56,474 bases of DNA, from IMG/VR virus record IMGVR_UViG_3300020258_000006, positions 1 to 56,474 of that record. One strand, 5' to 3'. Of the stretch, positions 1,074 to 56,474 are shown one piece after another. The notes below the pieces were generated by a model, which saw only the letters and a program-made list of their open reading frames with translations, ran no database searches and was not told the origin of the DNA. This stretch comes from a virus (Duplodnaviria > Caudoviricetes). Position 1 is the first letter of the stretch; each line of letters opens with the position of its first letter. The translations under genes and the position numbers were made by a program.

Positions 1074-1154
1074 TTAAAATATTGCTAGTAAAATGGCTAT
1101 TAAAACAATTATCCAAACTAGCTTAAAAGCACTAGTAATCCAATCGTGTATCAT
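1074..1154 (-). CDS. 26-aa single-TM micropeptide (MIHDWITSAFKLVWIIVLIAILLAIF), not in the ORF track
   Basis: ATGA overlap with the DUF932 stop; ends just before the terminator; hydrophobic helix. Confidence 0.6.
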   Translation of the reverse strand: MIHDWITSAFKLVWIIVLIAILLAIF

Positions 1155-3652: not shown

Positions 3653-3842
3653 TGACATTTTCCTTTTCATAACATTCAACAAATACTTCAATGCTCGATC
3701 TAATAAGATCAGCTACACTTATATGTTCTAAACTATTCCTAGTTTCTTGTAAAGATATTTTTGACAATTTTTCAAACATTTCTATAGGCATAGTTAAATT
3801 ATAAGTTTTTGTCGTTGACATTAATTTTTTAGGTCTACCCAT
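3639..3842 (-). CDS. Ribbon-helix-helix (CopG/Arc-like) DNA-binding protein
   Basis: MGRPK arm, beta-strand TYNLTMP, helix, then SVADLIRSSIE. Confidence 0.7.
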   Translation of the reverse strand: MGRPKKLMSTTKTYNLTMPIEMFEKLSKISLQETRNSLEHISVADLIRSSIEVFVECYEKENVNGKS

Positions 3843-4956: not shown

Positions 4957-5158
4957 GATCATCTCCATTAAGAATTGCTAACTTGATTTCTTTTAGACGA
5001 TCTACTGCATCTTCAAATGTATCGAAGTCATACGATACAGTTCTCATATCTACAACATCGTCAGATACTTCATACTGCACCATACCATCTTCAGACATAC
5101 CCTTAATGATACACCACTTGTTTTTCAAAGCGTTCTTATTTCCTTTCTTGGCACTCAT
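4943..5158 (-). CDS. Hypothetical protein
   Basis: ORF, AGAAAGGA SD. Confidence 0.6.
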   Translation of the reverse strand: MSAKKGNKNALKNKWCIIKGMSEDGMVQYEVSDDVVDMRTVSYDFDTFEDAVDRLKEIKLAILNGDDHASV

Positions 5159-7107: not shown

Positions 7108-8311
7108 CAAACAGGTATTAGGTTTTTGTTTATCTAATTCCTTTTTTGCAGAAGTAAAAAATATGTTGGACAGAACGATGTTCGACAGAGAAATGAAAGA
7201 CATATATGATGCTATATGTTTTTCCCATACAAAATACGGTAAGGATATAACCATTAATGAATTAGGGATACTATTTGACGATAGAAACCCATCTTTACCT
7301 GATAGCACTAAAAAAAGAGTACACGAAATAATTAGCGAACTAGATGTAGGTACGGCTGACAATTTTGAATTACATAAAGATATAATACAAAACTTTTGGC
7401 TAAGAGATAAAGCAAGACAGATTGGTGAAAAAGCTTTAGAAATATTTACAGGAGAAAGTGAAGAGTTTGGTGAGTTACGTAAGCTGATAGATCATGTAGA
7501 GGATGGTCGTATATCAGACAAAACTACTTATACTAAGGTTGACAAAGATTTTGAAGAGTTGCTGCAGGAAGAAGAGAAAGATAGTGACTTTCCTTTTGAC
7601 TATGCCCCTATTCGTGAAAATCTATCTGGTATGAATAGGGGCAACTTAGGTATTATATTTGCTAGACCAGAGGTAGGTAAGACAACTTTTTGTTGTTTTT
7701 TATGTGCATCGTACATAAGACAAAAATTAAAAGTTGTGTATTGGGCAAACGAAGAACCAGCAGATAAAATAAAATTAAGGATCATACAATCTTATTTTGG
7801 TTTAAAAAAAGAAGAGATGATAAACCATAAGAAAGATTTGATGCAGAGATATATAAAAGAGATTGAACCTTACTTAACAATTATGGATTCTGTTGGAACT
7901 TCTATAGAAGAACTTGATGAGTATTCTAAACTGAATAGACCTGACGTTATGTTCTGTGATCAACTAGATAAATTTAGAATATCAGGATTGTACAATAGAG
8001 GTGACGAAAGATTAAAAGAAACTTATGTCACTGCTAGGGAAATAGCTAAAAGAAATAAGCTATTGTTATGGGCAGTAAGCCAAGCAAGTTATGATGCACA
8101 TGACAGACAATTTATAGACTATTCTATGTTAGACAATTCTAGAACAGGAAAAGCAGGTGAAGCTGATGTCATTGTTGGCATAGGTAAGACAGGATCAAGT
8201 GAAATAGAAAATGATGTTAGACATATTTGTATTTCCAAAAATAAAATAAATGGTTATCATGGCATGATCAATGTACAGATAGATATACATAGAGGGATTT
8301 ATTGCACATGA
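7079..8311 (+). CDS. Replicative DnaB/gp4-like SF4 helicase
   Basis: Walker A ARPEVGKT, CDQLDK, VSQA, KAGEADV, SKNK. Confidence 0.92.
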   Translation: MSLYDPKLVDKQVLGFCLSNSFFAEVKNMLDRTMFDREMKDIYDAICFSHTKYGKDITINELGILFDDRNPSLPDSTKKRVHEIISELDVGTADNFELHKDIIQNFWLRDKARQIGEKALEIFTGESEEFGELRKLIDHVEDGRISDKTTYTKVDKDFEELLQEEEKDSDFPFDYAPIRENLSGMNRGNLGIIFARPEVGKTTFCCFLCASYIRQKLKVVYWANEEPADKIKLRIIQSYFGLKKEEMINHKKDLMQRYIKEIEPYLTIMDSVGTSIEELDEYSKLNRPDVMFCDQLDKFRISGLYNRGDERLKETYVTAREIAKRNKLLLWAVSQASYDAHDRQFIDYSMLDNSRTGKAGEADVIVGIGKTGSSEIENDVRHICISKNKINGYHGMINVQIDIHRGIYCT

Positions 8312-8877
8312 AAAAAGTTTTAACGTTGGATGTAGAAACAACACATATGGAGAAAAAAAATGGTGGATATACTCCTTTACCTTACTTCGGTAATCGTCTT
8401 GTTAGTGTGGGCTATAAGTATATGGATAGCCCTACCAATTACTTATGTTTTTATCACGCTGATCGTGAACCAGATCAGAAGGGTAACGAAATATTACAGG
8501 ATGCCTTAAATAATGCGAAAGTTCTTGTTGGTCACAATATTAAGTTTGACATTTGTTGGCTCAGAGAATGTGGTTTTGTCTATGATGGCAACCTGTACGA
8601 CACTATGGTTGCTGAGTATATTCTTGCACGATCTAGGAGATGGGGATTGAGTCTCGATGCTTTGTCTGAGAAGTACGATGTTACAAGAAAACGAAAAGAT
8701 TTAACACAAGATTACCTAAAGAACGGAAAAACTTTTTATGATATACCCTATGAAATAGTTGAAGAGTATGGTATAGCTGATGTAAAAGCAACAGAAGAAG
8801 TTGCTATAAAACAACTTATTGCCTTTGGCACAACTTTTGAGGAACTGTATGATACCAACGTTAAAGCTCTCGCTTGA
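8308..8877 (+). CDS. 3'-5' exonuclease domain of family A DNA polymerase (separate ORF)
   Basis: ExoI LDVET, ExoII GHNIKFD, YDTM, ExoIII YGIADV. Confidence 0.9.
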   Translation: MKKVLTLDVETTHMEKKNGGYTPLPYFGNRLVSVGYKYMDSPTNYLCFYHADREPDQKGNEILQDALNNAKVLVGHNIKFDICWLRECGFVYDGNLYDTMVAEYILARSRRWGLSLDALSEKYDVTRKRKDLTQDYLKNGKTFYDIPYEIVEEYGIADVKATEEVAIKQLIAFGTTFEELYDTNVKALA

Positions 8878-10378
8878 AATGACAAATGTTTTATCTAGGA
8901 TAGAACAGAACGGAATAAAAGTTAATTTAAATACTCTGGCCGCAATACGACAGGAGTATGAAACAGAATTGTTAGAGTTGGACACCAAGTTGCAGAGGAT
9001 GGCACAAAATGCTATGGGTGACACACCTGTAAATTTAGCATCACCAGACGATAGAAGTATTCTTTTATATTCTAGAAAAGTAAAGGACAAAAGTATTTGG
9101 TCTATTGTTTTTAATTTAGGTCACGAAGTTAGGGGTGCAACAAGCAGACCAAAATTTAAAACTAAAATGAAACGAGAAGAGTTTATAAGAAATGTTCGCA
9201 GTATGACAGATGTTGTCTATAAGACAGTTGGATCTCACTGTGAGTCTTGCAATGGACAAGGTAGAGTATCGTTTATACTGAAGAGTGGCAAAAAAAGTAA
9301 AGCCATGAGGATATGCAAGTTATGCAAAGGCAAAGGTATTTTGTATGAGAAAACTAAAGAAGTTGCAGGATTTAAGTTAGTACCTAGAAGCCCTGTTGAC
9401 ATAGCATCTGCAGGATTTAAAACAGATAAAGTTACATTGTCTAATCGTTTAGGAGAATTAGACGGAGATGCATACGAGTTCATAAAAGCATACACACGAT
9501 ACAACGCTTTGAAAACTTACATAAATACTTTTGTTGAGGGCATGGAAAACAATGTAGATTCAAATGGCTACATACATCCAGAGTTTATGCAATGTGTAAC
9601 TGCTACAGGTAGACTATCTTCAAGAAACCCTAACTTTCAAAATATGCCTAGAGGTAATACATTTGCTATAAGAAAAGTTGTAGAGAGCAGATTTGATGGT
9701 GGTTATATATTAGAAGGTGATTATTCACAGTTAGAATTTAGAGTTGCTGGATTTTTAGCTAAAGATAAAGCAGTGTACAGAGATGTTAAGGAAGGTACAG
9801 ACGTACACTCGTTCACTGCATCTATTATTGGTTGCGATAGGCAGACTGCAAAAGCACATACTTTCAAACCTTTATATGGTGGAGTTAGTGGAACGTCTGA
9901 ACAACAAAAATATTATAGAACATTTAAATCAAAGTATTCTAATGTTACATCATGGCAAGAAGACTTACAAAAACAGGCAGTTGAAAATAAATTTATTAAG
10001 TTGCCATCAGGTAGAGAGTATGCTTTTCCTGACGCTCAATGGACACGTTGGGGTACTGCTACAAATGCAACTGCTATTTGTAATTATCCTGTTCAAGGAT
10101 TTGCTACTGCTGATTTGTTACCTATGGCTTTAGTTTTGTTAGATTACAATATACGAGGACATAATTTAAAGTCTGTCATTTGTAACACAGTGCATGATTC
10201 TATTGTTATCGATGTTCATCCAGACGAATATAAGGATTGCATAACATTATTAAAATTTTCTATGCAGCATATTAAAAGTGAAGCTAAACGTAGGTATGAC
10301 ATAGAATATGACATGCCTGTTGACATTGAATTAAAAATAGGTAAAAATTGGCTTGACTTAAATTTGGTTGAGATATAG
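8849..10378 (+). CDS. Family A DNA polymerase domain with DnaJ-like zinc-finger insertion
   Basis: TATGRLSSRNPNFQN, motif A DYSQLEFR, motif B KAHTFKPLYG, motif C TVHDS; CESCNGQG and CKLCKGKG; GAGGA SD before ATG 8849. Confidence 0.93.
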   Translation: MIPTLKLSLEMTNVLSRIEQNGIKVNLNTLAAIRQEYETELLELDTKLQRMAQNAMGDTPVNLASPDDRSILLYSRKVKDKSIWSIVFNLGHEVRGATSRPKFKTKMKREEFIRNVRSMTDVVYKTVGSHCESCNGQGRVSFILKSGKKSKAMRICKLCKGKGILYEKTKEVAGFKLVPRSPVDIASAGFKTDKVTLSNRLGELDGDAYEFIKAYTRYNALKTYINTFVEGMENNVDSNGYIHPEFMQCVTATGRLSSRNPNFQNMPRGNTFAIRKVVESRFDGGYILEGDYSQLEFRVAGFLAKDKAVYRDVKEGTDVHSFTASIIGCDRQTAKAHTFKPLYGGVSGTSEQQKYYRTFKSKYSNVTSWQEDLQKQAVENKFIKLPSGREYAFPDAQWTRWGTATNATAICNYPVQGFATADLLPMALVLLDYNIRGHNLKSVICNTVHDSIVIDVHPDEYKDCITLLKFSMQHIKSEAKRRYDIEYDMPVDIELKIGKNWLDLNLVEI

Positions 10379-12137: not shown

Positions 12138-12544
12138 TGCCATTACTGAATACTAAATTGTACGATAGTGGTCTTATTGAAATGAATGAAGATCTTATGT
12201 GTGTTTTTGTTGAAGCACATAATCGAGCAGGTGGTGGTAGAGATACTGTATATTTAAGGCAACACGACAGGGGTGTGCCGTTAACTATGAGAAATGATTT
12301 TTCTGATAGTGGATATTTAGATTATTCTACACAAGTTAGAGATCTTAAAATATTACGTGAAGATTTTGATTATTTAAGTTCTTTATTAAGAAGAGGTAAT
12401 TTAATTTTACTTCCATTATATCCTTTACTAGAAGAACATATTATGTTAGAAAAAAAATCTCCTGTTGTTACAGAATATATACAGGAAAGAATAGATACTC
12501 TATTTACAATTTTTCCCATAACTCCAATAGCGAGATTACATTGA
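12137..12544 (+). CDS. Hypothetical protein
   Basis: Translationally coupled ORF. Confidence 0.6.
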   Translation: MPLLNTKLYDSGLIEMNEDLMCVFVEAHNRAGGGRDTVYLRQHDRGVPLTMRNDFSDSGYLDYSTQVRDLKILREDFDYLSSLLRRGNLILLPLYPLLEEHIMLEKKSPVVTEYIQERIDTLFTIFPITPIARLH

Positions 12545-12924
12545 AAGTACAAGATAGATACGCAGGGTACAGATCCTTATTTGAATTAAATGTAGCTAAA
12601 AATTTAATTGAAAATAAAATAAAATTTGAATATGAAACTCAAAAAATAAACTACATACCTAAAACAAAAGTATATACACCTGATTTTTATTTCCCTCTTA
12701 CAAATATATACGTAGAAGCAAAAGGATATTTTGATATGGATGATAGAGTGAAAATGCTTTTGGTTAAAAAGCAACATCCAGATCTTGATATTAGATTTGT
12801 TTTTTTAAAACCTTATAATAAAATTAGATCAAACAGTAAAACAACTTACGTTGATTGGTGCAACAAATATAATTTTAAATGGGCTGATAAAGTTATACCT
12901 ATGGAGTGGTTTAAAAATGTCTAA
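12541..12924 (+). CDS. Endonuclease I-like Holliday junction resolvase (T7 gp3-like)
   Basis: YRSLFE, YTPDF, YVEAKG, HPDLDIRFVF, TTYVDWC. Confidence 0.9.
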   Translation: MKVQDRYAGYRSLFELNVAKNLIENKIKFEYETQKINYIPKTKVYTPDFYFPLTNIYVEAKGYFDMDDRVKMLLVKKQHPDLDIRFVFLKPYNKIRSNSKTTYVDWCNKYNFKWADKVIPMEWFKNV

Positions 12925-16061: not shown

Positions 16062-16148
16062 CCGGGGTATAAACATACACGGAGGGTGCGTTTCACCCCT
16101 CTGAGGGGCTTTAAAACGAGACGTTTTTTTACAACTGTAGTCGAAAAT
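16062..16148 (+). other. GC-rich structured intergenic element related to 56303-56466
   Basis: CCGGGGTATAAACATACA, hairpin GAGGGTG-CGTTT-CACCC(C)TC, GTAGTCGAAAAT. Confidence 0.45.
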
Positions 16149-16379: not shown

Positions 16380-16560
16380 TGTTATTCATAGCTCCCATCA
16401 TTGGCATGGGGGCTTTCATTTTTTTAGGCTTTGCAGACATCTCTGTCATGCCGCCATGACCCATAGATTTTTTCATACTGCCACCATACATCATGGGTTT
16501 TCTTTTAGCCGCTCCACCATACATCATGGATTTTCTTTGACCGTTATTGTATACTTTCAT
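16369..16560 (-). CDS. Small basic Met/Gly-rich protein with MMYGG repeats
   Basis: AAGGAG SD; KSMMYGG, KPMMYGG, KSMGHGG. Confidence 0.7.
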   Translation of the reverse strand: MKVYNNGQRKSMMYGGAAKRKPMMYGGSMKKSMGHGGMTEMSAKPKKMKAPMPMMGAMNNTTS

Positions 16561-25285: not shown

Positions 25286-25813
25286 TTATTCCTCTGCTCT
25301 TAAAAAACTATTTTGCTTTAGGTTATCTTCTTTTAATTCACCTTGAACGGCTTCATCTACTTTTAATCTTTGCCTTTCGTTTATTTCTTCATTCATAGCA
25401 TCAAACATCTTTGGATTTCTTTCTTTTAGAATAGCAAAAAACGATTGGTCATTAAATTGTTCTTGTTCATCTTCTACAAATAACTGAGGTTCAAATCCCT
25501 CTCTTTCTGCAGCATCCATTAAATATATAGCTACAGCAGGTTTTATGAGTTCAGCAACATCAGGAGTATATGCCCCTGCTAAAAATCCTTTAAAAGCTAT
25601 TTGTGCTACAACTTCTTCAACTGTTATACCTGCAAGCAATGCTTTCATAATTTCTTCATGTGCTTGTTTATCTCTAAGTTTATCTATAACAAAATCTACA
25701 GCATCATCAGGATTAGAAAATTGTGCAGGATTTTCCCAAGGGTAACCTTGTGGTGCATCTGTTAATGAATGTCCGGGGGGAGCCGCAAGAGCCGTAAGTT
25801 TATCCATCTCCAT
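25286..25813 (-). CDS. Virion-associated protein (PGHSLT..P..YPWENP motif)
   Basis: Motif typical of marine podovirus ejection-module proteins; coupled ORF. Confidence 0.55.
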   Translation of the reverse strand: MEMDKLTALAAPPGHSLTDAPQGYPWENPAQFSNPDDAVDFVIDKLRDKQAHEEIMKALLAGITVEEVVAQIAFKGFLAGAYTPDVAELIKPAVAIYLMDAAEREGFEPQLFVEDEQEQFNDQSFFAILKERNPKMFDAMNEEINERQRLKVDEAVQGELKEDNLKQNSFLRAEE

Positions 25814-45935: not shown

Positions 45936-46925
45936 TTACGCTGCGTAGCTAATTACAGCACGGCAAAGAGCTTCTTGTCTAAGGACTTTTCTTCCAAAGA
46001 CGTGAAGACCACGTACTATATCGCTAAAGGTTTCAGTTGAACGTACAACTTCTGTCTTTGCAATATGCGAAGCTGTAGCAGTTGAAGACATGTGACCAGC
46101 TAAAATAACATGTTCAGATGAATCAGTTTCTAATGTGCCTGTAGCATCTGTTAGTGTTACTTGATCTGTTCCACCTGTGCTATTAAGAGCAGTAGTCTTA
46201 TATAACTTAAATCCAGCTAATGTGCCGTTGTATACAAGACCGTTTCTTAACGGAGTTGATGCATCGCCAGTAACTTGGACTTCAGCTATTTTATTTCCTG
46301 CTTTAAGAGCAAATTCATAGAACTTAGGTGGTGCTATGAACCAACGGTTTTCTTCTGGAACACTTTGGTCATCTAAATGACGAGCCATAGTTAACAAAAG
46401 ATTAATACCGTTATCGGCAGTGTCAACTCTGATAGGAGTATTAGTTGTACCTAAACCAGTTGCATCAGTTGTTGTCAAGGTTGTACCTGACACGGCTGAT
46501 CCACCGATACCTGCTCCATCAGACATAACTTGAAGAATATTAGAATCATAATTTCTCTTCAATGAATATGCACCTGATGAAGTTGCTAATGCTTCAAAGT
46601 TCACATGTGAATGACGTTCTTCAATGTCATCGATCTTAAATGCAAATGCATTTGCTTGATCAACAGTCATTGTGATTTGGTCGTCAGCCAAATCTTGAGG
46701 ATTAATTACAGAACCTCTAGAATACGATGAAATCGTAAGTGTTGGTTCTTTAATAATCTTCACGGTGTCGCCAAAGTTCTCAATCTCACCGTAGTAGTCT
46801 GTATTAGTTATATCTTCTACAACCGAAGCTCTACGGAAAAATTTTAAAACTTTTTGGCTAAATATTTCTGGTGTAAAATTACCAGAAGGCAGGTTACCAT
46901 AACCTGCTGCACTATTAAAAGCCAT
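45936..46925 (-). CDS. Major capsid protein (HK97 fold)
   Basis: FTPEIFSQKVL, ITNTDYYGEI, GDTVKI, FSDIVRGLHVFGRKV. Confidence 0.9.
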   Translation of the reverse strand: MAFNSAAGYGNLPSGNFTPEIFSQKVLKFFRRASVVEDITNTDYYGEIENFGDTVKIIKEPTLTISSYSRGSVINPQDLADDQITMTVDQANAFAFKIDDIEERHSHVNFEALATSSGAYSLKRNYDSNILQVMSDGAGIGGSAVSGTTLTTTDATGLGTTNTPIRVDTADNGINLLLTMARHLDDQSVPEENRWFIAPPKFYEFALKAGNKIAEVQVTGDASTPLRNGLVYNGTLAGFKLYKTTALNSTGGTDQVTLTDATGTLETDSSEHVILAGHMSSTATASHIAKTEVVRSTETFSDIVRGLHVFGRKVLRQEALCRAVISYAA

Positions 46926-46954
46926 GAGCTTTCTCCTTCTTAAAAGTTAAAATT

Positions 46955-47824
46955 TTAAGATGCGAAATCTATACGACCTTCGGCTCTAGCTTCGTCAATT
47001 TCTTTTTCAACTTTTTCAAATTCCCACGGTTTCAATTTACCAATGTCGCTTGCTTTCCATATTCTTTTATCTCCACCAGTAGAATTTATTTCTCTAGCTT
47101 TTGGAGATTTTACAATGGTTGCTGCTGAACTTTGAGTAGATTGTGAAGTAGGTTTTACTTTTGAATCTGCTTTATATAAATCAACGACTCTAGAAGCCCA
47201 TCTTGCATCTGTGTTATTTCTTAGAATACCATCAGATATAGAGACAGGTTGATCCTCTAGCCATTTTATAAATTTTTCATCTTGTCTTAGTTCATTAAAA
47301 TCAGAATGATTATTTAACAACTCTGCATAAGCATTTTGAACCTTTAAATCTTTTTCTTTTGTCTTTATAGTATCCAGTTCTTTTTGGAGTTCATCAGATT
47401 GTTCTTTTGCTTTCATAGATGCTATAGTTTGCACTACATCATAAACATCTGGGTACTCTGTTTTAAACTGTTCTAATTCTTCAGGAGTTTTAGGTAACTC
47501 AACACCTTTTTGTTTTGCCATTTCCATAGCAGAACTAAGTTGTTTTTTCTCTTCCTCATGTTGTTTTATTTTATTGTCATAATGACGTTTTAAATCATCA
47601 TACCTTTTTTTATAATCATGGGGTTGATCTTTTTCTGTAGAAACAAACGTCTCTGCTTCTTTAGAAGTAGTTTCCTCTTTAACTTCTGCAGTTTCTAAAT
47701 TTTGTTCTTCATCCTCTTTGTAAACATCATCACGATAATTACCTTTGTATAAAGAATCATTATTTATAGTGCCAAAAGAATCGTTAGGTTTATTTGCTCT
47801 TGCACCTCGTTGCTTTTTTGCCAT
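46955..47824 (-). CDS. Capsid scaffolding protein
   Basis: YKKRYDDLKRH, PKTPEELEQF, C-terminal IDEARAEGRI; upstream of the MCP. Confidence 0.8.
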   Translation of the reverse strand: MAKKQRGARANKPNDSFGTINNDSLYKGNYRDDVYKEDEEQNLETAEVKEETTSKEAETFVSTEKDQPHDYKKRYDDLKRHYDNKIKQHEEEKKQLSSAMEMAKQKGVELPKTPEELEQFKTEYPDVYDVVQTIASMKAKEQSDELQKELDTIKTKEKDLKVQNAYAELLNNHSDFNELRQDEKFIKWLEDQPVSISDGILRNNTDARWASRVVDLYKADSKVKPTSQSTQSSAATIVKSPKAREINSTGGDKRIWKASDIGKLKPWEFEKVEKEIDEARAEGRIDFAS

Positions 47825-47840
47825 ATTTTTTCTCCTTAAT

Positions 47841-47910
47841 GCAGGGCCACATTGGCGAATGGGTAGCTGCTTTGGTTGTAGTCAGGGCTATATTATTATA
47901 GGTAGCTGAC
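47841..47910 (-). ncRNA. Tandem pair of CC-bulged hairpins in the scaffold 5' UTR
   Basis: Two 30-nt units CAG-CUA-CC-stem/loop-URG-CC-CUG with different but still paired apical stems. Confidence 0.65.
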
Positions 47911-47917
47911 GGTTGAT

Positions 47918-49768
47918 TTACGGAAATTCCTCTGTCATATACCTTCCGTAAAAAGTGTGTCCTTCATCATCTATTAACGGAGCTAAAAGTGGCGATTTGT
48001 CATGCCATGAAGATCCTCCAACTCCGGGTTTTTTATAATATAATATATGTGAAGGTAATCTGTATTGTTCTAAATCAGGCTCTGTGTCCAAAGTATTTAT
48101 TGCGGCTGTGTAAGTTTTTTCTAAAGCGTCTGGAGCTTTTCCTGATAAAATTTCTGATATTCTTGCTTGTAAAATACTAGGTTCTAGACCATCAAATGCA
48201 ACCATTTTACTGCCCTTTCCCCTATTAGTTCTTTGTAACAAAACATCTTTAATTGATTTTAAGTTTTTAAATTCAAATTGTTGATCATTAACTCTATTAA
48301 GTATTACATCACCAATTTTTTGCATAGTTGTTAAAGATGCTTTTGATGCAACAGTTTCAGTTAAAAAAGCTAAAGACAAAGCTTCTTCATCTGATAGGCT
48401 TAATATAAAATTATCTCGTTCTGATCTATTTCTTTTCTTTTTATTAAAATCTTTTAATTTAGACATAAAGTCATCAGAAGGAATTTCGTAACCTATATCA
48501 ACTTCATTTCCTTGTACTTCATCTCCTTGGTTATATCCGTTCATAAACCCTTTATTTAACGCAGTAACAGTGGGTTTACCTTGATCATTTATTTTTTTTA
48601 AAAACTCCATGCCCCCCATAGCATTTACATGTTCTGGTGGTATGTACATTTCTCCTTTAGATATTTTTATGGGTACTTCTCCACCCATAGCTAAACTAGG
48701 AGACTTGCTTTGTTTTTTTGCCTTATTGTACATGGCATTTAATTTTTTTTCTCCAAATTTTTGAACAGCAGGTGCATTTATAACAAAACCACCTTCTCTA
48801 GCTTCAAAGTTAACATCATCAGCTATTGTTTTTTGAGGAGAATATTGACTAGGAGGACCTCCTATAAAACCCCCATCATTAAATCCAAACTCACCAGTAA
48901 ATCCTTCTGCTCCCTCTTTAGTTTTTTGTTTTTCTTGTCTAAGCGTATCAAAACTTTGACCAGAACTAACTTTACCAGTTTTTTCTGTTTCTTTTACATA
49001 TTGATCTGAAGTTTTTATTTTTGTAGATGTATCTAATAATCTATTTTTTAAGTTAGTAGATAAATTAGATTCATTTATAGATTTTGTAAATTCTTTATCA
49101 AAACCTGCATCCCCCATGCCAAACTTTGTATATTGACTACCTAAAAATCCTGAACCTTTTCCTTGTTGAGATAACTGTAATAAATCATTTATAATGTTTC
49201 TTCTTTGATCTTCAGGATAAACACCAGTTAATTGATATCCTAAAAATCCTTTACTTAAACCTATAGGTCTACCATCATACATTCCTATGGCAAATCCTTC
49301 ATCGCCTAATGCTGCTCTTGCAGATATAGTTTCTAAATGTGCTTTTGTCAAACCACTTAAAAGTTTTGCAGGTCCTGCTAAAGGCCCTAACATTAAATCT
49401 GCTACACCTAAAGTTCCTTGCATTTGTTTACCAGTAGCTATAGAATAACTACTTCCTGTTACTGAAGGAGAAGTAGATATATTTTTCATCCTATTAATAA
49501 AAGAACCACCATCAGTTGCATCAATCTTTTCATATGGACTTTTATTATCACTACTACCACCAGTTACTTGAGATACCTCTCCAGTTCTAGGTACACTAGG
49601 TGTAGTTAAATTAAATGGATTAGATGTTCTAAGAGTTCTAAAGGTTCTATTTATACCTTTATTTAACCTTTGTAAAAATTTAGGCATAGGTCTACTAGTA
49701 TCTAAAACATACCCTTTGTTTTTATCAAAAGTATAGTTATCAGTTATAAATGTTCGCCATTCACTCAT
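47918..49768 (-). CDS. Putative virion protein with C-terminal SleB/Hydrolase_2-like cell-wall hydrolase domain
   Basis: ALSLAFLTE...IGDVILNRV...SIKDVL...GHTFY; GGFIGGP...DDV...EGGFVINA module. Confidence 0.55.
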   Translation of the reverse strand: MSEWRTFITDNYTFDKNKGYVLDTSRPMPKFLQRLNKGINRTFRTLRTSNPFNLTTPSVPRTGEVSQVTGGSSDNKSPYEKIDATDGGSFINRMKNISTSPSVTGSSYSIATGKQMQGTLGVADLMLGPLAGPAKLLSGLTKAHLETISARAALGDEGFAIGMYDGRPIGLSKGFLGYQLTGVYPEDQRRNIINDLLQLSQQGKGSGFLGSQYTKFGMGDAGFDKEFTKSINESNLSTNLKNRLLDTSTKIKTSDQYVKETEKTGKVSSGQSFDTLRQEKQKTKEGAEGFTGEFGFNDGGFIGGPPSQYSPQKTIADDVNFEAREGGFVINAPAVQKFGEKKLNAMYNKAKKQSKSPSLAMGGEVPIKISKGEMYIPPEHVNAMGGMEFLKKINDQGKPTVTALNKGFMNGYNQGDEVQGNEVDIGYEIPSDDFMSKLKDFNKKKRNRSERDNFILSLSDEEALSLAFLTETVASKASLTTMQKIGDVILNRVNDQQFEFKNLKSIKDVLLQRTNRGKGSKMVAFDGLEPSILQARISEILSGKAPDALEKTYTAAINTLDTEPDLEQYRLPSHILYYKKPGVGGSSWHDKSPLLAPLIDDEGHTFYGRYMTEEFP

Positions 49769-49997
49769 TATTTTGTTTTACTTTCATAGCTGCATAGTAA
49801 TCTAATTTTAAACCTTTAATCATTTCCAGTGAAGCCACTTTCCCCTGCAGACGGTACAGGTCCTGTGCCGATTGTGCCACCACCAGCCCCTTGAGGGCTA
49901 TTTTGATTTGCTCCTCTAGGAACTCCTCCAGAGCGATCCACGCTTTCTCGTTGGTTACTATTGGGCTGACCTTGCTGGCTTGTTTCTTGTTGAGCAT
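49761..49997 (-). CDS. Conserved small protein downstream of the portal (overlaps the portal 3' end)
   Basis: AAGG before ATG; DLYRLQGKVASL motif. Confidence 0.65.
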   Translation of the reverse strand: MLNKKQASKVSPIVTNEKAWIALEEFLEEQIKIALKGLVVAQSAQDLYRLQGKVASLEMIKGLKLDYYAAMKVKQNNE

Positions 49998-51930
49998 CTT
50001 GTAGTCCTTTTAACATTTGTGCAAAAATTTGTGCTTCGTTTACATCATTAACTAGACTATCAGGATCTATATCTTGAGATATAGCTAACTCTCTAATTAA
50101 GTTAGGTATTTTTATAAACGGTGCTAGCATTGGATTTCCTACAGTTTGTAATAATGCTGTAAGACGTTGACTTCTTACTTCTTTTTGCATTACTGCAGAA
50201 ACACCTCTAGGTTTTATTTCTAAGTCTCCTTGTATATCAGGAGCTTGTTCATTAAATTGCATGTTCCATTGAAACATAGCTTCACCCAAAGGTTTTAACA
50301 GGTGGTCATCAATATTTTTTATAACTGTTTTAAGTGATAAAGATGCACCCCCTAACAACATAGATAATCCAGAAGCTGTTCTTCCTGTTCCAGATACTCC
50401 AGTTTGTCCGTGCATAATTGATGGCAACCCTGTTTCTTCGTCTGCTAACTGACGACTTATTTGATACATTTGTAAATTTTCTGGTGCAGTATTAGGAAAC
50501 TTTAAACCATTTATAGCTGTTCCTGTTACACCTGACTGTCTTCTAAATATCTTTCCGGGAAAGATGTCCATGTTTTGTCCCGGAACTAAACTTGCTTCAT
50601 CTACATCAAATACTAAATTTCCTGCTAATGTCAAGTTATCTATAGCCATTCTTACATGACCATTCATTAACATTTGAGCATCTTCCATATTTTCTGCAAC
50701 ACCTACACCCCACAATTGATAAGGATTGATTTCGTATGGTATTACTTGATATGGTATTCTAGATGGTGTAAAAGGATTTAATACACATCTTAGTATGTGC
50801 ATACCTGATACCCATATATTAACCTGCACTTGGTCTAATTCACTAAGATCTTCAGGTATTTCCATACCCACTTCTCTAGCTAACTTAGCGTCTAATACAC
50901 CCCAATATTCTAATACTTCATATCTATTTTCTTCGTATGTTGTTTGGTTTTCTTCTCTACGTATAGTGTCTTCATAATATTTATTATTATAATTAGGACC
51001 CATAGCTATACAATCTTCTATAGCTTCTTTGTAGAAATGAGGTATACTGATTAAACCTCTCATTTGTTGTTTGTTTAATCTATGACGTTGAATAACATAT
51101 TCGCAGTCATCCATGCTTGTTGCATTAGGATCAGGATGAAAATCCCATATAGAAACATGTTCAAGTCTAGGCACAGTCTTTTCATATGGAACATAATTTC
51201 TTTGACCGTTTTCTCCACGTTCCCATTTATGTATTCTTTTATGAAAGTTAAAAGGACCTTTTACAATTCCAGTTCCTAATAGTGCGGCCTCAAATATTGC
51301 ATTTCTTAATACATTAACTGCACTAGTATCTAAAAGCTGATCATGTATGTATTTCTCTAATTTAAGAGCTGCCTTTTGTGCAGGACTAATTTGTGGTTCT
51401 CCTGCTTTAGCAGGTCCTTCTGCTATAGGTGCATTTGCAAACTGATCTTCCAAACCACCTAATATATCCATAGATGGAGATGCTTCCATAGCACCGGGAG
51501 CTATATTTCTGCCATCGCCTTGAAAACCATATGGGTCTTGTTTTGGTGGTTGTACGACTTGATCTATAGGTGTCTGTAAATGTGCAAACTCTGCTATACC
51601 TTCTGGTATAGGAGTAGGCTCAACAACTATAGGAAATTTTTTATTAGAAAATAATATGTCAACTATTTGACCGTATGCTGCTAGAACTTTAGTTTTAGTT
51701 ATCTTGATAAATACTTTAGAACGTTCAGAATCACGGTATACAGTAGTGCTGTCGTATATACCCCTAAAGTTTTTATACGCTTGTAGCCAATCCTTTTCAT
51801 GGGATAGCCTATTGTGTTCTGCTTCCTCTAGCTTGTTTTTAATATACCCAATAAGTCCGGGCATACTTTCACTAGGTTCTACGACAGGTACAACTGTATC
51901 GTCTGCAGGTTCTAAAAAATTATCAGACAT
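49816..51930 (-). CDS. Portal protein
   Basis: WLQAYKNFRG, SKVFIKITKTKV, LGTGIVKGP, WGVGV, GRTASGLSML. Confidence 0.9.
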   Translation of the reverse strand: MSDNFLEPADDTVVPVVEPSESMPGLIGYIKNKLEEAEHNRLSHEKDWLQAYKNFRGIYDSTTVYRDSERSKVFIKITKTKVLAAYGQIVDILFSNKKFPIVVEPTPIPEGIAEFAHLQTPIDQVVQPPKQDPYGFQGDGRNIAPGAMEASPSMDILGGLEDQFANAPIAEGPAKAGEPQISPAQKAALKLEKYIHDQLLDTSAVNVLRNAIFEAALLGTGIVKGPFNFHKRIHKWERGENGQRNYVPYEKTVPRLEHVSIWDFHPDPNATSMDDCEYVIQRHRLNKQQMRGLISIPHFYKEAIEDCIAMGPNYNNKYYEDTIRREENQTTYEENRYEVLEYWGVLDAKLAREVGMEIPEDLSELDQVQVNIWVSGMHILRCVLNPFTPSRIPYQVIPYEINPYQLWGVGVAENMEDAQMLMNGHVRMAIDNLTLAGNLVFDVDEASLVPGQNMDIFPGKIFRRQSGVTGTAINGLKFPNTAPENLQMYQISRQLADEETGLPSIMHGQTGVSGTGRTASGLSMLLGGASLSLKTVIKNIDDHLLKPLGEAMFQWNMQFNEQAPDIQGDLEIKPRGVSAVMQKEVRSQRLTALLQTVGNPMLAPFIKIPNLIRELAISQDIDPDSLVNDVNEAQIFAQMLKGLQDAQQETSQQGQPNSNQRESVDRSGGVPRGANQNSPQGAGGGTIGTGPVPSAGESGFTGND

Positions 51931-51940
51931 AACCTACTTT

Positions 51941-52159
51941 CTAGTAGTCTTTTTCGTTAGCCATTGCAAACAAAGAATTGTCTACAGTAGTTTTAGTTTG
52001 CTTTTTAGGCATATCTACTGTAAGCACATCTCTAGATGCTCTAGTATCAAACTCAAGTGGTTCTCTAGTTAAAACATTAGAACCCATAGCATCATCAACT
52101 GATGTTTTATCTGAGTTCATAATGTAAGAAGCACCATAATTATAATTGTTACCGGGCAT
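51941..52159 (-). CDS. Small hypothetical protein
   Basis: AGGAG SD; between the recombinase-like gene and the portal. Confidence 0.65.
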   Translation of the reverse strand: MPGNNYNYGASYIMNSDKTSVDDAMGSNVLTREPLEFDTRASRDVLTVDMPKKQTKTTVDNSLFAMANEKDY

Positions 52160-52169
52160 TGTACTCTCC

Positions 52170-54131
52170 TTATTTATTAAAATTTAAAAAATTATCTTGG
52201 GGAAAATCCCTAACTGTTGTTCTATCGTCTTCGCTGTACACAAATTCGTCAGCATCGTCACTTCCTCTTTCAGGCTGTTCACCTATAGGTTTAGCAAAGT
52301 TTTCATCAGGGTATAGCGATTGATTAGGGGATATTTTTGAAATCCCAAATGCTATAGGTACGGCTTCTGCTACTGTCGATAAAAATCTTCCACGAGGATC
52401 TAACTTAAGAGCGGCTTGACCTGCTTTTTTTATACCTTGAATTATACCTTCATCTTTTGCTATATCAAATGCTGTTTGTCCAACACTTTCAATATCACCT
52501 TCGCCTTGAAATACTGCCGCTAAACCTGCTCCTGCTCTACCTGCTGCACCAAACTTAGAAGCTCCTCTAGCTAATGTTGTTTGCATATCTCCAAACATGT
52601 CACCAGAAGAATCTGCAATTGTTGCAGTTCCGTCAGGAGATGGTTCTCCAAATATTAATTCTGTAGGAGATTCGTCTAAAGCACGAAACTCATCTACATT
52701 TTCGTTTCCTGTAGGAATACCTAAACTAGCAAATACTTTATCTCCAAGATCTAACAATTTATTTTCTTTTGCTACTTTTACTGCGTTTTGTGATTCTAGT
52801 CTAGCTTGGGCAGCTTCTTTTGATTTTTTTCCTAATTCTATATCTAAATTAGCTTGTTGTAACTCTAACTCTTTTACAGAAACAGCTTGAGATTTTTGTG
52901 CTAAATCATCACTAACTACATTAATTTTAGTTGATATAAATTCATCGCCTAATTGTAAATTAGGATATTTTTTTTCTAATTGTTCTTGTATAAACCACGG
53001 AGTTGCTTTAAATGTTTCGGCTGTAGCATTATATTTTTTTGTTCTATTGCTAAGATTTTTTATACCTATATTGGCTAAATACTGTGCAATAGAAGTTTGA
53101 CCATTTAAAAGAGAATGTATAGATAATCTTTTTACGTGTGCTGATTCTAACCTACCCATATTACCAGTAGCAATATATCCTCTAACAGTAGTAGGGTTTC
53201 CTCTTAAAGTTAAAAAATCTCTTTCAGGAGAATTTTCTAGTATTCCCATAGCACTTAAATGAGTTTCAGACATTTTTCTTAAATCTTCTAAAGTAAAATC
53301 TCCTCCTTTTTCTATACCTTTGACAGTATACCCAGTAGGTATTTTTGCATTTTTTAGAGCTTGATTTGCTATTTTTTGTGACGCAGCTAAATTTTTAAAT
53401 ACTAAACCGTCTGTTCTACCCCCAGAAAATTCTTTTATAATATCTAATATATCAGGAGTAAAAATACCTGCTTTATATACAGGTTCTTGATTTCCTTTTG
53501 TGGCACTTATTATTGCATCTTTTATGAGTAACTCAGAAACAAATCCTGTATTAAAATCTATTTTTTCTAATTTTAAATTTTTTAAATCAGAAGCTCTATA
53601 TCCCCCTACAAGAATCATAAGAGTAAGATACCCTGCTTCTCTTTGTTTTACATCTTTACTGTTTATTAAACCAGATGCTACCTTTGCAATTTTTTGGTAA
53701 GGAGTAGTATCCTTATACGGAATAGGAATTTTTCTTATAGCTTCTCTTGATTGTGGAAAAGTTGCTACTCTTTTTGCTTCTCCAACAACATCATCTAAAA
53801 GAAGTCGAACAGGATTATTATTTCCTTTTGCTACATACCCTGCTTCATTAAATACTTTTTTAAATGACTGAAGTATTTTATTTGCGTCTTCAGATCCATC
53901 ATTAATAATTGCATTTGCAAATTTTGCTTTTGCTTCTTTATTATTATTTATATCGCCTAACGTTAATTCAGATAAACCTAATTCACCTAATTTTTTACCT
54001 ACAGCCTGTCTATTGCTAAAAGTATTAGCGTTTACCACAAGATTGATTAGGGGAGTTTTATCTAAGAAATCTTTTCTTAACTCACCAGAGTCTGCTATTA
54101 ATTTTTCAAAATTTTCATTAAAAAAAGCCAT
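52170..54131 (-). CDS. Tyrosine-recombinase-fold protein with long C-terminal extension
   Basis: Box I LMILVGGYRASDLKNLKLEKIDF; box II FTLEDLRKMSETHL...LRGNPTTVRGY; TAATG-coupled to TerL. Confidence 0.65.
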   Translation of the reverse strand: MAFFNENFEKLIADSGELRKDFLDKTPLINLVVNANTFSNRQAVGKKLGELGLSELTLGDINNNKEAKAKFANAIINDGSEDANKILQSFKKVFNEAGYVAKGNNNPVRLLLDDVVGEAKRVATFPQSREAIRKIPIPYKDTTPYQKIAKVASGLINSKDVKQREAGYLTLMILVGGYRASDLKNLKLEKIDFNTGFVSELLIKDAIISATKGNQEPVYKAGIFTPDILDIIKEFSGGRTDGLVFKNLAASQKIANQALKNAKIPTGYTVKGIEKGGDFTLEDLRKMSETHLSAMGILENSPERDFLTLRGNPTTVRGYIATGNMGRLESAHVKRLSIHSLLNGQTSIAQYLANIGIKNLSNRTKKYNATAETFKATPWFIQEQLEKKYPNLQLGDEFISTKINVVSDDLAQKSQAVSVKELELQQANLDIELGKKSKEAAQARLESQNAVKVAKENKLLDLGDKVFASLGIPTGNENVDEFRALDESPTELIFGEPSPDGTATIADSSGDMFGDMQTTLARGASKFGAAGRAGAGLAAVFQGEGDIESVGQTAFDIAKDEGIIQGIKKAGQAALKLDPRGRFLSTVAEAVPIAFGISKISPNQSLYPDENFAKPIGEQPERGSDDADEFVYSEDDRTTVRDFPQDNFLNFNK

Positions 54132-55801
54132 TAGTAACCAAAGACCTCATCTTGAACTTTAAATACTTGATTTTTAATATGACCTAAGGTTTGATGTATA
54201 GATGCATATCCTGTTACTCTACACATAAGCATATAACGCAAAGCATCATAGGCATGATCTTCAGCTTTTGTATCTACATCTTCACTATTGGTTTTAGACA
54301 AAGGTATCCCTGCCATTTGCTTAACTAAGTTGCTGCACGTAGAAAATATACGAACTCTAGGTTCTTCTGTACGAGGATCGTCAGCGAGTCTACTATGCAC
54401 TTCCATTTTACCTTGCATCCTATTTCTATCAGCAGGAGTCCATCTAACTCCTGTCCTCATCATTGTTTCTGCTATAGAAGGTCCAAAGCCTGTTTTGTTC
54501 CAACAGGAAGAATCTAGGACAGTGTAATGAGGTGTAGGATCTAATTGTTCTACTTCTAGTATTTTATCAGCTAATTGCTCTCCAGTCAAGTGTTTTACGT
54601 AAAGTTCTCTATAAACCCAGATATTATTATCCCAATCTATAGCACCCCATAAAACACAAGATGGACTAGCGTATCCATAATCAGCTGCACGTATTCTGGG
54701 CCAGTTAGTCGGCATATCAAAAGGCTCGACTACATGCTTAGTACGTGAAAACTCTGGGAAGGCGGCTCCCTCTGCCACATCCCAATCCCCTTCTAGAAGT
54801 CTCTTTCGTTCAACTTCTGGGAGCGATCTCAACATTGCTTCATATTGACCATCAGCCATGAGATAGGGATTATCGGTCAACCGTGCAGGAATAAACTTAC
54901 GAAAGAACAACGGTTGCCTTGCTTTTTCATGCCCATCGGGCCATAGTAAAGGTGTTCCTGTATCTATGTCACACGCTGGGAAAGCCGTAAAGGGTTCAGA
55001 AGGTTCTATGTACATCTTCTTGACCCACCATCCACCAACGCCACCGGGGTTGGCAGTACATCTCATATATAAATTGTCTTGTAGCTCTTTATCTGTCGAT
55101 CTTAATCTAGAACGGAGATAATCCCACACATACGATGTAGGATACTGTGTTATTTCATCTATACCTATCCAATTAAAAGACTGACCTTGAAATCTTGTTA
55201 CGTCTTTGTCTTTATCTAGGTATGTAAACCATATTGTTGCTCCTGATGGGAACACCCAAGTTGATTTTGACTCCCTAAATTTTGCACCGGGAAATGCTTT
55301 TGTATATAATTGTCTTGACTTATCTATAAGTTCTGTTAATTCGTCTAATGTTCTTCTTAGGAGAAGACCTCTATGATTAGGATTATGGCAATACCGAAGA
55401 GGATCAGCAAGTAAGCTAAAGCTCTTCCCACCTCCTGCTGCACCCCCATATAATACATCACGTTCTGGAGACGATAAAAAGTCTTCTTGAGGACCTGCGT
55501 TAGGCTTAAAAACAATTTCGCGACCATCAACAAGTTTTTGTACAGAATTAGGTAGATTTTGTAAATCACCCTCATCAACTGTAGCTGAATCGTTGCCTTG
55601 TAAAGCTTTTTCAATTTTAATTGCACTATTCTTAATAGTTTCTGCATATTTTCTCCTATTTCCTGCTTTTATGGCTAGTTTATTAGCTTTTTTGTTAGCT
55701 TCACGTAGTCTTTTTTGTGTTTCTCTACGTGCTTTTTGAAATACGGATAGATTATAATTCGCTTTAGGTGCGTTAGGATCTTTTTTTGGTCTTCCTGCCA
55801 T
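54131..55801 (-). CDS. terL: Terminase large subunit
   Basis: YGGAAGGGKS, IGIDE, CTANPGG, ADYG, DHAYDALRY. Confidence 0.95.
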   Translation of the reverse strand: MAGRPKKDPNAPKANYNLSVFQKARRETQKRLREANKKANKLAIKAGNRRKYAETIKNSAIKIEKALQGNDSATVDEGDLQNLPNSVQKLVDGREIVFKPNAGPQEDFLSSPERDVLYGGAAGGGKSFSLLADPLRYCHNPNHRGLLLRRTLDELTELIDKSRQLYTKAFPGAKFRESKSTWVFPSGATIWFTYLDKDKDVTRFQGQSFNWIGIDEITQYPTSYVWDYLRSRLRSTDKELQDNLYMRCTANPGGVGGWWVKKMYIEPSEPFTAFPACDIDTGTPLLWPDGHEKARQPLFFRKFIPARLTDNPYLMADGQYEAMLRSLPEVERKRLLEGDWDVAEGAAFPEFSRTKHVVEPFDMPTNWPRIRAADYGYASPSCVLWGAIDWDNNIWVYRELYVKHLTGEQLADKILEVEQLDPTPHYTVLDSSCWNKTGFGPSIAETMMRTGVRWTPADRNRMQGKMEVHSRLADDPRTEEPRVRIFSTCSNLVKQMAGIPLSKTNSEDVDTKAEDHAYDALRYMLMCRVTGYASIHQTLGHIKNQVFKVQDEVFGY

Positions 55802-55806
55802 GCATT

Positions 55807-56205
55807 TTACGTTGTTTGTCGTTTAGGGGGCAGTAAAACTACCCCATGAATTGCCTGTACATTATGATTCATAGTCTCCTGACGACCTAAACCAACTCTA
55901 TTGAGTAGAGTTTCTGCAGCTTTTAAGCGTAGTTCGTCTCCCCTCTCTGGTGTAGGGTTGTCTATTGTCCTGATTACCTGATTTGCAGCCTTCAATGCTC
56001 CCATAGATAGTAGAGATTTGGTCTTTTCTACAATTTCTTCTGCTAATGATACCTTGAGCCATCCTACAGATCCTTGAGAGTATCCTGCCTGTAATGCAGC
56101 ATCAGTTATGTTGCCACCATTTTTAAACAAGTGGTCTAAAAAAGACTCTTGTTGAGGTGTCAATTCTCTTTTACTCTGTCTATTTGGTAATAAATTTAAT
56201 GACAT
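55807..56205 (-). CDS. terS: Terminase small subunit
   Basis: LTPQQESFL...GNITDAALQAGYS HTH; upstream of terL; start moved to ATG 56205. Confidence 0.8.
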   Translation of the reverse strand: MSLNLLPNRQSKRELTPQQESFLDHLFKNGGNITDAALQAGYSQGSVGWLKVSLAEEIVEKTKSLLSMGALKAANQVIRTIDNPTPERGDELRLKAAETLLNRVGLGRQETMNHNVQAIHGVVLLPPKRQTT

Positions 56206-56211
56206 ACTATT

Positions 56212-56240
56212 ATAATAGGAATCGACACCCATTTAGTCAA
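56212..56240 (-). promoter_or_regulatory. Sigma70-like promoter of the late operon (leaderless terS)
   Basis: TTGACT-17nt-TATTAT, ATG 6 nt downstream. Confidence 0.65.
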
Positions 56241-56260
56241 TAAAAAAAAATTTATAGCCA

Positions 56261-56289
56261 TTGACAAATGAGAAATTTACTATCATACT
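56261..56289 (+). promoter_or_regulatory. Divergent sigma70-like promoter with no ORF downstream
   Basis: TTGACA-17nt-CATACT. Confidence 0.55.
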
Positions 56290-56294
56290 AAGGT

Positions 56295-56372
56295 ATCACC
56301 TGCCGGGGTATACATACATGTATACCTTACGACACTGCTGGGAGAACCATTCGTGTTCTACCCCCATTTTTC
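56295..56372 (+). ncRNA. Candidate small RNA or structured DNA site
   Basis: Hairpin GGTATACA-TACA-TGTATACC; hairpin GGGAGAAC...GTTCTACCC followed by a T-tract; promoter upstream. Confidence 0.35.
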
Positions 56373-56474
56373 ATACAAAAAACTATAAAATATAAAATTA
56401 CGGTTGACATTGCTAGCAAAGTACCAGTACCCCCGGTGACCCTACCGACCCATCGTGGTCGAAAATTTATATAA

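Follow-up and report, generated by a model that had tools for sequence, protein, structure and literature searches.

Among the described enzymes that come closest to the one considered here, Cre of phage P1 acts at loxP, a site near the packaging start, and cyclises terminally redundant phage DNA as well as resolving dimers; poxviruses package their topoisomerase IB in the virion; and a classical integrase is expected to act early in infection, beside its phage attachment site (attP). Passages of a study on the VLF-1 protein present it as a late, integrase-family component of the nucleocapsid end that binds cruciform DNA and is implicated in the processing of replicated DNA for packaging (PMC6669607), and part of another paper deals with gp143 of phage phiCbK, a small lytic-phage recombinase encoded in the replication module that is thought to resolve replication intermediates (PMC3556154). 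The DNA analysed here, referred to below as the window, is the whole of IMG/VR virus record IMGVR_UViG_3300020258_000006, a contig of 56,474 bases rated complete by CheckV, and our subject is a gene for a protein of 653 amino acids (aa) that lies between the genes of the terminase large subunit (terL) and the portal protein. On its predicted structure, the product belongs to the tyrosine-recombinase superfamily and has an Int/Xer-type architecture; judged by sequence and gene order, the gene appears as a late gene that is fixed in a single clade of uncultured marine podoviruses of the HMO-2011 type and is translated in tandem with TerL. Phages of the HMO-2011 type are described as a dominant marine viral group (PMC9038755). 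By its modelled fold the protein thus falls in a very well-known superfamily, and what is new is the combination of an active site without His, an added sub-domain, helix and disordered tail, a fixed place coupled to TerL in the packaging operon of a widespread marine phage clade, and shuffled alleles. The literature searched on tyrosine recombinases in connection with virion, terminase, portal or pelagiphage showed no such gene described for tailed phages.

The Pfam Phage_integrase profile (PF00589) matches the window protein with an E value of 0.0015 and 18.8 bits (20.8 bits in a second scan; gathering cut-off 27.1 bits), and the PHROG integrase profile with an E value of 0.0094. Phage_integrase matches 12 of 28 family members at E ≤ 0.01, and in one of six related records a relative exceeds the cut-off with 31.2 bits over profile positions 8-167 of 172. 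A single-sequence search of the PDB with the window protein gave no match, and a profile search of the PDB gave just box I of XerA (E 0.092) and a coiled-coil-biased scaffold match (E 0.5); NCBIfam assigned nothing to the family, save for a 21-bit XerA match in one relative. A word-indexed protein search returned two to three close relatives, whereas 35 clusters, most of them of proteins ~600 residues long, were obtained when 1.84 billion representatives were searched exhaustively with HMMER. These clusters served as the alignment for an AlphaFold2 model of residues 1-400, which has a mean predicted local distance difference test score (pLDDT) of 89.9 and the form of a two-domain tyrosine recombinase. 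When this model was compared with the PDB using Foldseek, the top ranks were taken by XerA, lambda Int, Tn1549 Int, Brujita Int, Cre and XerH, in alignments of 310-370 columns that span both domains and with a probability of 1.00 for XerA, lambda Int and Cre. A comparison by VIA-align with 48,161 chains yielded 12 matches with Z ≥ 8, every one a tyrosine recombinase or a topoisomerase IB. The best were XerA (4a8e, Z 10.7, root-mean-square deviation 3.7, 164 aligned), Brujita Int (Z 10.5) and 3nkh (Z 10.2); lambda Int reached 8.9 and its core 1ae9 8.7. The N-terminal domain is included in the two-domain VIA alignments to lambda Int 75-356 (1z1b), Tn1549 Int (6emy) and Cre (1kbu), and residues ~14-130 match SAM-like N-terminal domains of integrases with modest Z values (3lys 5.5, 2kkp 5.0, 2oxo 4.0). 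Among the predicted viral structures in BFVD, the top 19 matches at E ≤ 0.001 are phage proteins that are either named as integrases or unnamed. On these models the similarity to recombinases goes beyond a chance match, and the Int/XerC-type catalytic domain that the sequence-only reading had recognised is borne out by the AlphaFold model and its PDB matches.

The active site was studied in an alignment of 91 distinct sequences, comprising the window protein, 66 ORFs (open reading frames) from IMG/VR loci and 24 database proteins. The window protein carries the motifs GGYRASDL (176-183), GLVF (242-245), LEDLRK (281-286) and TTVRGY (314-319), so that all motifs quoted in the sequence-only reading are present, and its statement that both Arg and the Tyr are kept with both His altered holds for E282 and R310, with the Lys kept as well. 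In hhalign, R179 corresponds to lambda R212 and K204 to lambda K235, and the lambda residues R212, K235, H308, R311, H333 and Y342 were confirmed on lambda's own sequence. The spacings R179-K204, K204-R285, R285-R310 and R310-Y319 are 25, 81, 25 and 9, as compared with 23, 76, 22 and 9 in lambda, and position 282 was assigned to the first His place (His-I) and 310 to the second (His-II) by this spacing rather than by residue-level structural superposition. Assigned in this way, the family carries neither the canonical His of HxxR at His-I nor His or Trp at His-II; the residues found instead are listed in Table 1, where the sole outlier at positions 204, 289 and 310 is the very divergent L111 protein. 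Read from the alignment, the active site is of the non-canonical form Arg-Lys-(Tyr/Lys/Glu)xxArg-Arg-Tyr. The conservation of R/K/R/Y among homologues extends to 90-91 of 91 sequences, and since the Tyr and the Arg/Lys residues are held while residues 1-400 drift to a median identity of 26%, this argues for a working catalytic centre. The family enzyme is therefore most likely catalytically competent, as a phosphotyrosyl DNA enzyme, to judge from its conserved residues. The fold might also have been reused without catalysis, in a protein that binds DNA or serves as a structural part of the head, comparable to MrpR or Ndc10. This would fit the loss of both His and the presence of MrpR, SroF and Ndc10 among the fold matches (Z 4-6.3); given the retention of the Tyr, both Arg and the Lys while the rest of the protein diverges, we consider this very improbable.

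The catalytic domain is matched by topoisomerase IB structures nearly as well as by recombinases (6z01 Z 8.1, 2b9s Z 7.9, 2h7f Z 7.7; range 7.4-8.1, with 1a41 at Z 6.0), which raises the alternative of a topoisomerase IB-like swivel that would relieve torsion during packaging or ejection with no site-specific recombination. Poxvirus topoisomerase IB has Lys at the first His place, as do 20 of the 91 family sequences, and co-expression with the packaging motor would suit such a function. However, the N-terminal domain is the SAM-like core-binding domain of integrases, the His-II place is Arg in the family whereas topoisomerase IB keeps the second His, and the best structural matches are recombinases, so that a swivel is a doubtful explanation with little probability.

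According to PHROG profiles, the minus-strand gene order is terS, terL, the 653-aa ORF, a 72-aa ORF and the portal gene, beyond which lie genes for a 616-aa protein, a 289-aa protein and the major head protein. The 72-aa ORF belongs to no PHROG family in the profile search. The sequence-only reading had placed the 653-aa ORF before the portal and in a TAATG overlap with terL; this is correct, with the additions that the genes lie on the minus strand and that the 72-aa ORF intervenes. The protein is thus made from one message with TerL and directly after it. A scaffold candidate lies at 46955-47824. With the overlap on one side and a spacer of ~10 nucleotides (nt) towards the downstream neighbours on the other, there is no room for an adjacent non-coding site beside the gene. 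The other strand encodes a primase, a DnaB-type helicase, a family A polymerase and a ribonucleotide reductase, and the genome has a G+C content of 34%. Its nearest cultured relatives by TerL (48-57% identity) are the pelagiphages HTVC115P, HTVC033P, HTVC103P and HTVC104P, the Roseobacter CRP phages and HMO-2011.

In IMG/VR, three scans by sub-alignment and a fourth by the protein sequence led to 100 loci on 96 distinct contigs, the same contig being found twice in L078/L098, L081/L103, L083/L105 and L088/L100; L112 and L113 were left out as weak matches to an ordinary 364-aa integrase in unrelated DNA. In the remaining 98 loci, on 94 contigs, the gene immediately upstream is terL in 90, and the other 8 break off before that point. 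On the downstream side, the portal gene follows at no more than 1.7 kb in 81, and the other 17 break off before it, so that there is no exception. The terL-recombinase-portal synteny that the sequence-only reading suggested searching for in marine viromes is thus found wherever the DNA reaches. In all 66 loci with a complete ORF, the start lies between -1 and +4 nt from the terL stop (overlapping in 25, abutting in 7 and separated by 2-4 nt in 34). Identity to the window across these loci is 63-94% for TerL and 61-96% for the portal, and none of the 96 carrier contigs exceeds phage-genome length, the longest having 55,186 bases. The family was not found among 50,697 GenBank phage records (tblastn, two family members as queries), and its profile finds nothing in the whole genomes of HTVC115P, HMO-2011 and CRP-3; in HMO-2011 and CRP-3 the portal gene directly follows terL, and in HTVC115P three small ORFs lie between them. 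DNA of the window phage or of close relatives (positions 46475-56474) was detected in 20 public runs, which come from 14 studies of marine or seawater metagenomes. Six of the runs contain at least half of the sampled words, and three are marked as possible sources of the DNA; the runs were available as contigs, from which ends, strands and expression levels are not readable. Three RNA libraries from two studies contain short pieces of the gene (53834-54023, 53856-54092 and 52270-52431), which is not proof of transcription.

In relatives that lack the recombinase, the gap between terL and portal holds other small genes (L002, 3122-3892; L117, 2277-3218; L119, 9042-9887), among them reverse-strand lipoprotein-like ORFs on a Paracoccaceae contig. 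The gap is therefore an accessory-gene slot, in which the recombinase gene has become fixed in this clade. L111 and L052 were considered as cases of a different N-terminal domain on the same tail, which was rejected, as both retain the recombinase motifs.

The mode of evolution was compared for 30 loci, giving 435 pairs that are not independent, so that the figures are descriptive. Median pairwise identity is 26% for recombinase residues 1-400, as opposed to 76% for the last 300 residues of TerL and 73% for 450 residues of the portal. The Spearman correlation is 0.85 between TerL and portal, 0.28 between recombinase and TerL, and 0.42 between recombinase and portal. In 8 of the 29 pairs with TerL more than 90% identical, the recombinases are less than 40% identical, which indicates an exchange of alleles between flanks that are nearly the same. 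Averaged by region, pairwise identity amounts to 26% in the core-binding domain, 36% in the catalytic domain, 27% in the sub-domain after the Tyr and 17% in the helix, the least conserved part. A divergence so far above that of the flanks, and the exchange of alleles between near-identical flanks as in arms-race genes, would be expected of an effector directed at the host or at its defences, injected or made late, that cuts, nicks or covalently blocks DNA of the host or of a defence element; the accessory-gene slot of the relatives suits this as well. Against such an effector speak the catalytic core, which is conserved as in a housekeeping enzyme, the lack of a PADLOC match for the family and the literature searched, in which no tyrosine-recombinase effector of this kind turned up, and we judge it improbable.

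The same shuffling of alleles between near-identical flanks is typical of int modules, and the gene could accordingly be a lysogeny integrase in an unusual place, which would recombine an attP situated elsewhere (the extended non-coding DNA upstream of terS is one such place) with a host attachment site (attB), the alleles standing for different integration sites. Its architecture is nearest to Int/Xer/Cre, and it is the only tyrosine recombinase in the window genome and in five related records: the Pfam profile search found no second Phage_integrase-like place in the 56.5-kb record and no further one in any of six related virus records, three of which are complete. The slot upstream of the primase, where HMO-2011 carries its canonical integrase, holds none in the window genome, in agreement with the sequence-only reading, which had seen no ordinary integrase near the replication genes. 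On the other side, the start is coupled to the terL stop in every complete-ORF locus, within a late operon and with no adjacent non-coding DNA, and the 250-residue tail is foreign to integrases. No relative was found by two peptide patterns in one genome each of 185,579 prokaryote species, a search limited by the patterns, and the gene is present in none of 10 HMO-2011-like portal loci in those genomes, mostly on metagenome-bin contigs, of which L114 is too short upstream to tell; in two of these loci, other small genes occupy the space between terL and portal. That no carrier contig exceeds phage-genome length also speaks against integrated copies. The 242 nt upstream of terS gave AT-rich chance matches only in 401 Pelagibacterales genomes, a weak argument as the host is not identified. 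Neither an attP beside the gene nor integrated copies at prophage borders were found, within the limits set by the patterns and by the host not being identified, and the homologues, flanked by terL and portal wherever the DNA reaches, are not the ordinary prophage-border integrases that would have spoken against the sequence-only reading; none was found in bacterial genomes. Subgroups IV-X of the HMO-2011-type phages are reported to be without lysogeny genes (PMC9038755), which would count against an integrase if this clade belongs to one of them. A lysogeny integrase is the main rival explanation, possible though rather unlikely.

The C-terminal part was assessed in a full-length model from the 91-row alignment (mean pLDDT 73.3), in which the fold of residues 1-400 is retained, residues 408-469 form one helix and residues 485-653 fall under pLDDT 50. 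The coiled coil followed by Gly/Ala amphipathic segments of the sequence-only reading was roughly right: the Gly/Ala-rich composition stands (25-33% Gly+Ala over residues 471-600), while the coiled coil becomes a single helix and the amphipathic segments a region that is predicted to be disordered and turns acidic, with 25% Asp+Glu over the last 53 residues. The tail is weakly conserved in sequence, with the exception of its end, where 67 of 91 sequences have [NGS]F[LIM] within the last 12 residues or end in ...GF, and several of the remaining 24 have near variants. A 175-aa late protein, whose gene stands before the two giant ORFs (1194 and 1705 aa) that close the late operon, ends in ...KQNSFLRAEE, and its relatives in three genomes (L059, L060 and L061) have ...PNFMTMG..., ...QNFLEMGDV and, farther from the end, ...SFLDVP...; the portals of the clade keep MSDNFLEP at the N-terminus and GFTGN near the C-terminus. 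A docking peptide shared by the recombinase tail, this late protein and the portal would be a lead rather than a demonstration, because F-L-type tripeptides often arise by chance (by our own estimate, the 47 listed ORFs would be expected to contain about 0.7) and the compared sequences are related. Docking of tail residues 560-653 against one portal chain (score 0.00, mark 0.32) carries no weight either way, and a search of the ESM Atlas with residues 400-653 gave nothing usable (feature scores 0.82, TM <0.4).

We tentatively favour, with somewhat less than even confidence, a genome-processing role tied to packaging or entry, exerted by an active phosphotyrosyl DNA enzyme. It is favoured because the gene lies in the late operon, overlaps terL, has a spacer of only ~10 nt behind it and encodes 250 extra residues, as opposed to an early integrase beside its attP; the recurrence of the tail motif in the late protein and its three relatives was also counted in its favour. 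We infer from these features that Tyr319 would attack phage DNA and form a 3'-phosphotyrosyl intermediate, after which the strand would be rejoined. The phage genome would thus be broken and rejoined at specific sites or structures, either as packaging proceeds or when the DNA enters the cell. The reaction may interconvert monomeric and multimeric genomes by making or resolving multimers, may cyclise the genome or seal its ends at a single site, as in P1 Cre-lox, or may be a form of genome processing like the one put forward for baculovirus VLF-1. A partner in the head or in the packaging machinery would be bound through the long helix and the disordered tail, which carries the F-L motif at its end, so that the enzyme would be tethered there. 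A version of lower probability, which we regard as unlikely, is that the protein would be loaded into the capsid through its helix and tail and ejected with the DNA, and would then seal, cyclise or integrate the entering genome by phosphotyrosyl transfer.

Several observations weigh against a genome-processing role. The replacement of both His could in principle mean altered or lost chemistry, and the window protein itself scores under the Pfam cut-off. The cassette-like exchange of alleles is typical of integrase/att modules and would fit a host-directed role, too. For Holliday junctions the phage already encodes a resolvase, which is homologous to T7 endonuclease I and located at 12541-12924 on the plus strand (PF05367, 137 bits), and the TerL nuclease motifs look intact as read from the sequence, so that no missing function calls for a recombinase. 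Finally, no long palindrome, no paired repeats or recombination-site pair and no terminal repeat were found in the window. The idea that the recombinase stands in for a missing junction resolvase or a defective TerL nuclease was rejected, given the endonuclease I and the intact TerL motifs.

The search for DNA sites also bears on the alternative of a hairpin telomere resolvase (protelomerase), to which the size of ~600 aa and the Tyr at the His-I place in 50 of 91 sequences would correspond. In ResT and TelA, the second active-site Tyr stands at the same place, three residues before the second Arg. It is presented, in passages of one paper, as peculiar to these two enzymes (PMC11317167). However, the best near-palindromes in the complete genome measure 14-28 nt (72-93%) and lie mostly within genes, inverted terminal repeats are absent from the 56.5-kb record, the Z values of TelK, TelA and ResT (5.7, 5.5 and 3.4) are well under those of the integrases, and the window protein has Glu instead of Tyr at position 282, all of which leaves a protelomerase hardly credible.

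The elements at 16062-16079 and 56303-56312, which had been proposed as substrates for the enzyme, are unconvincing as a site pair, as they have just the exact 10-mer CCGGGGTATA in common, followed by CATACA after a 2-nt indel; with one mismatch allowed, the 10-mer matches the window three times, where chance alone would give 0.73. The first of the two lies just before a hairpin with a T-run at the end of the plus-strand genes. The second falls in a G+C-rich element (56254-56353, minus sense), ~75-170 nt upstream of terS in an otherwise A+T-rich spacer, which contains a 7-6-7 inverted repeat, GGTATAC ATACAT GTATACC, at 56307-56326. The core of this element recurs in 13 related loci as CC(C/T)CGG(C/A)GG ... 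TGTA ... TTTGTCAA with a short hairpin whose arms vary by locus, and it gave no Rfam family and no RNAalifold consensus structure. From its position and sequence, it could be a packaging (pac) or terS-binding site, a promoter or leader, or a site of the recombinase. Elsewhere, two tandem copies of a 25-nt direct repeat, which are 33 nt apart and 96% identical, are found at 16481-16538, just before the minus-strand late operon ends.

Some other features of the genome are recorded here, and the coordinates of the locus are given in Table 1. The family A DNA polymerase consists of two overlapping ORFs in different frames, an exonuclease of 191 aa (8302-8877, plus strand) and a polymerase of 519 aa (8819-10378, plus strand), as opposed to one gene of 2043 nt in HMO-2011; a split gene, a frameshift and a sequencing error are all possible causes. 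In the 616-aa protein encoded next to the portal gene on its downstream side (47918-49768, minus strand), the C-terminal residues 481-592 weakly match the cell-wall hydrolase family PF07486 (E 0.0069), which makes the protein a candidate for an ejected murein hydrolase. A leftward block between the replication genes and terS includes a C-5 cytosine DNA methylase (3835-4968, minus strand; PF00145, E 1.4e-36) and a DUF932 protein (1151-2269, minus strand).

Table 1. Features of the terminase-recombinase-portal locus, of the recombinase-type protein and of a late protein with a similar end; positions refer to the window.
Feature	Position	Strand	Basis or remark
Terminase small subunit (terS)	55807..56232	minus	phrog_51, E 6.4e-7
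Terminase large subunit (terL)	54131..55801	minus	phrog_979, E 1.5e-62
TAATG overlap of terL stop and ORF start codon	54129..54133	minus	read from sequence
Recombinase-type ORF (P0001)	52170..54131	minus	653 aa; tyrosine-recombinase-type, C-terminal helix, disordered tail
Residues 1-130, helical core-binding (SAM-like) N-terminal domain	53742..54131	minus	confident model; matches to integrase N-terminal domains
Residues 131-324, catalytic domain	53160..53741	minus	VIA matches to XerA 4a8e and lambda Int core 1ae9; residue conservation
R179 codon	53595-53597	minus	Arg in 91/91
K204 codon	53520-53522	minus	Lys in 90/91
Position 282 codon (Glu, His-I place)	53286-53288	minus	Y 50, K 20, E 18, Q 2, A 1 of 91; His 0
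R285 codon	53277-53279	minus	Arg in 91/91
Glu289	residue 289	minus	Glu in 90/91
R310 codon (His-II place)	53202-53204	minus	R in 90/91, I in 1
Y319 codon	53175-53177	minus	Tyr in 91/91
Residues 325-400, conserved helical sub-domain after the Tyr	52932..53159	minus	Q350 and G356 nearly invariant
Residues 408-469, single long alpha-helix (62 residues)	52725..52910	minus	full-length model
Residues 485-653, Gly/Ala-rich then acidic tail, predicted disordered, end ...QDNFLNFNK	52173..52679	minus	pLDDT <50; composition
72-aa ORF, accompanies the recombinase gene in most relatives	51941..52159	minus	tblastn match in 74/100 loci, identity 41-83%
Portal protein	49816..51930	minus	phrog_332, E 1.3e-77; phrog_1216, E 3.2e-35
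175-aa late protein, end ...KQNSFLRAEE	25286-25813	minus	precedes two giant ORFs (1194, 1705 aa) at the late-operon end

An apparently active recombinase that is locked translationally to the terminase would be a new component of packaging or entry in tailed phages and could explain how a genome is cyclised, multimerised or established without a classical integrase. If the protein were carried in the virion, it would be a tailed-phage counterpart of the virion enzymes of poxviruses (topoisomerase IB), baculoviruses (VLF-1) and retroviruses (integrase), and its variable alleles might define genome-specific 'self' sites. The Arg at His-II and the Tyr, Lys or Glu at His-I may be regarded as a natural experiment on the chemistry of the superfamily, and the family would supply new site-specific recombinases, provided that its alleles differ in the sites they recognise.

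Among the known systems, the integrase gp09 of HMO-2011 is a tyrosine recombinase from the same phage group that differs in its length of 292 aa and in its place upstream of the primase; hhalign of the family against gp09 aligned box I only, with a probability of 0.5%, and the family profile detects neither gp09 nor the CRP-3 integrase. The telomere resolvases ResT, TelA and TelK are of like size and resemble most family members in having a residue other than His, often Tyr, before the second Arg, whereas their structural similarity is lower and their palindromic target has no counterpart in the window. Poxvirus topoisomerase IB has the same catalytic fold (2h7f, 1a41), with a different N-terminal domain and the second His kept. 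VLF-1 of baculoviruses and nudiviruses is, as here, an integrase-family protein of a DNA virus, with a weak fold match (rank 48 in BFVD, probability 0.51); it belongs to eukaryotic viruses with a different capsid, with which it is associated. Cre of P1 is likewise a phage recombinase, there serving the phage genome itself, and differs in lacking a tail and in being encoded outside a terminase operon; nothing like a lox site was identified in the window. XerA, the lambda Int core, Tn1549 Int and Cre are alike to the family in their core-binding and catalytic domains and in the Arg-Lys-Arg-Tyr spacing. Compared with such simple tyrosine recombinases, the family gene belongs to a late packaging operon, has no site beside it and was not found in prophages, and its product has Tyr, Lys or Glu in place of His-I and an invariant Arg (90 of 91) in place of His-II, to which it adds a conserved sub-domain of 75 residues, a helix of 62 residues and a disordered tail of 170 residues.

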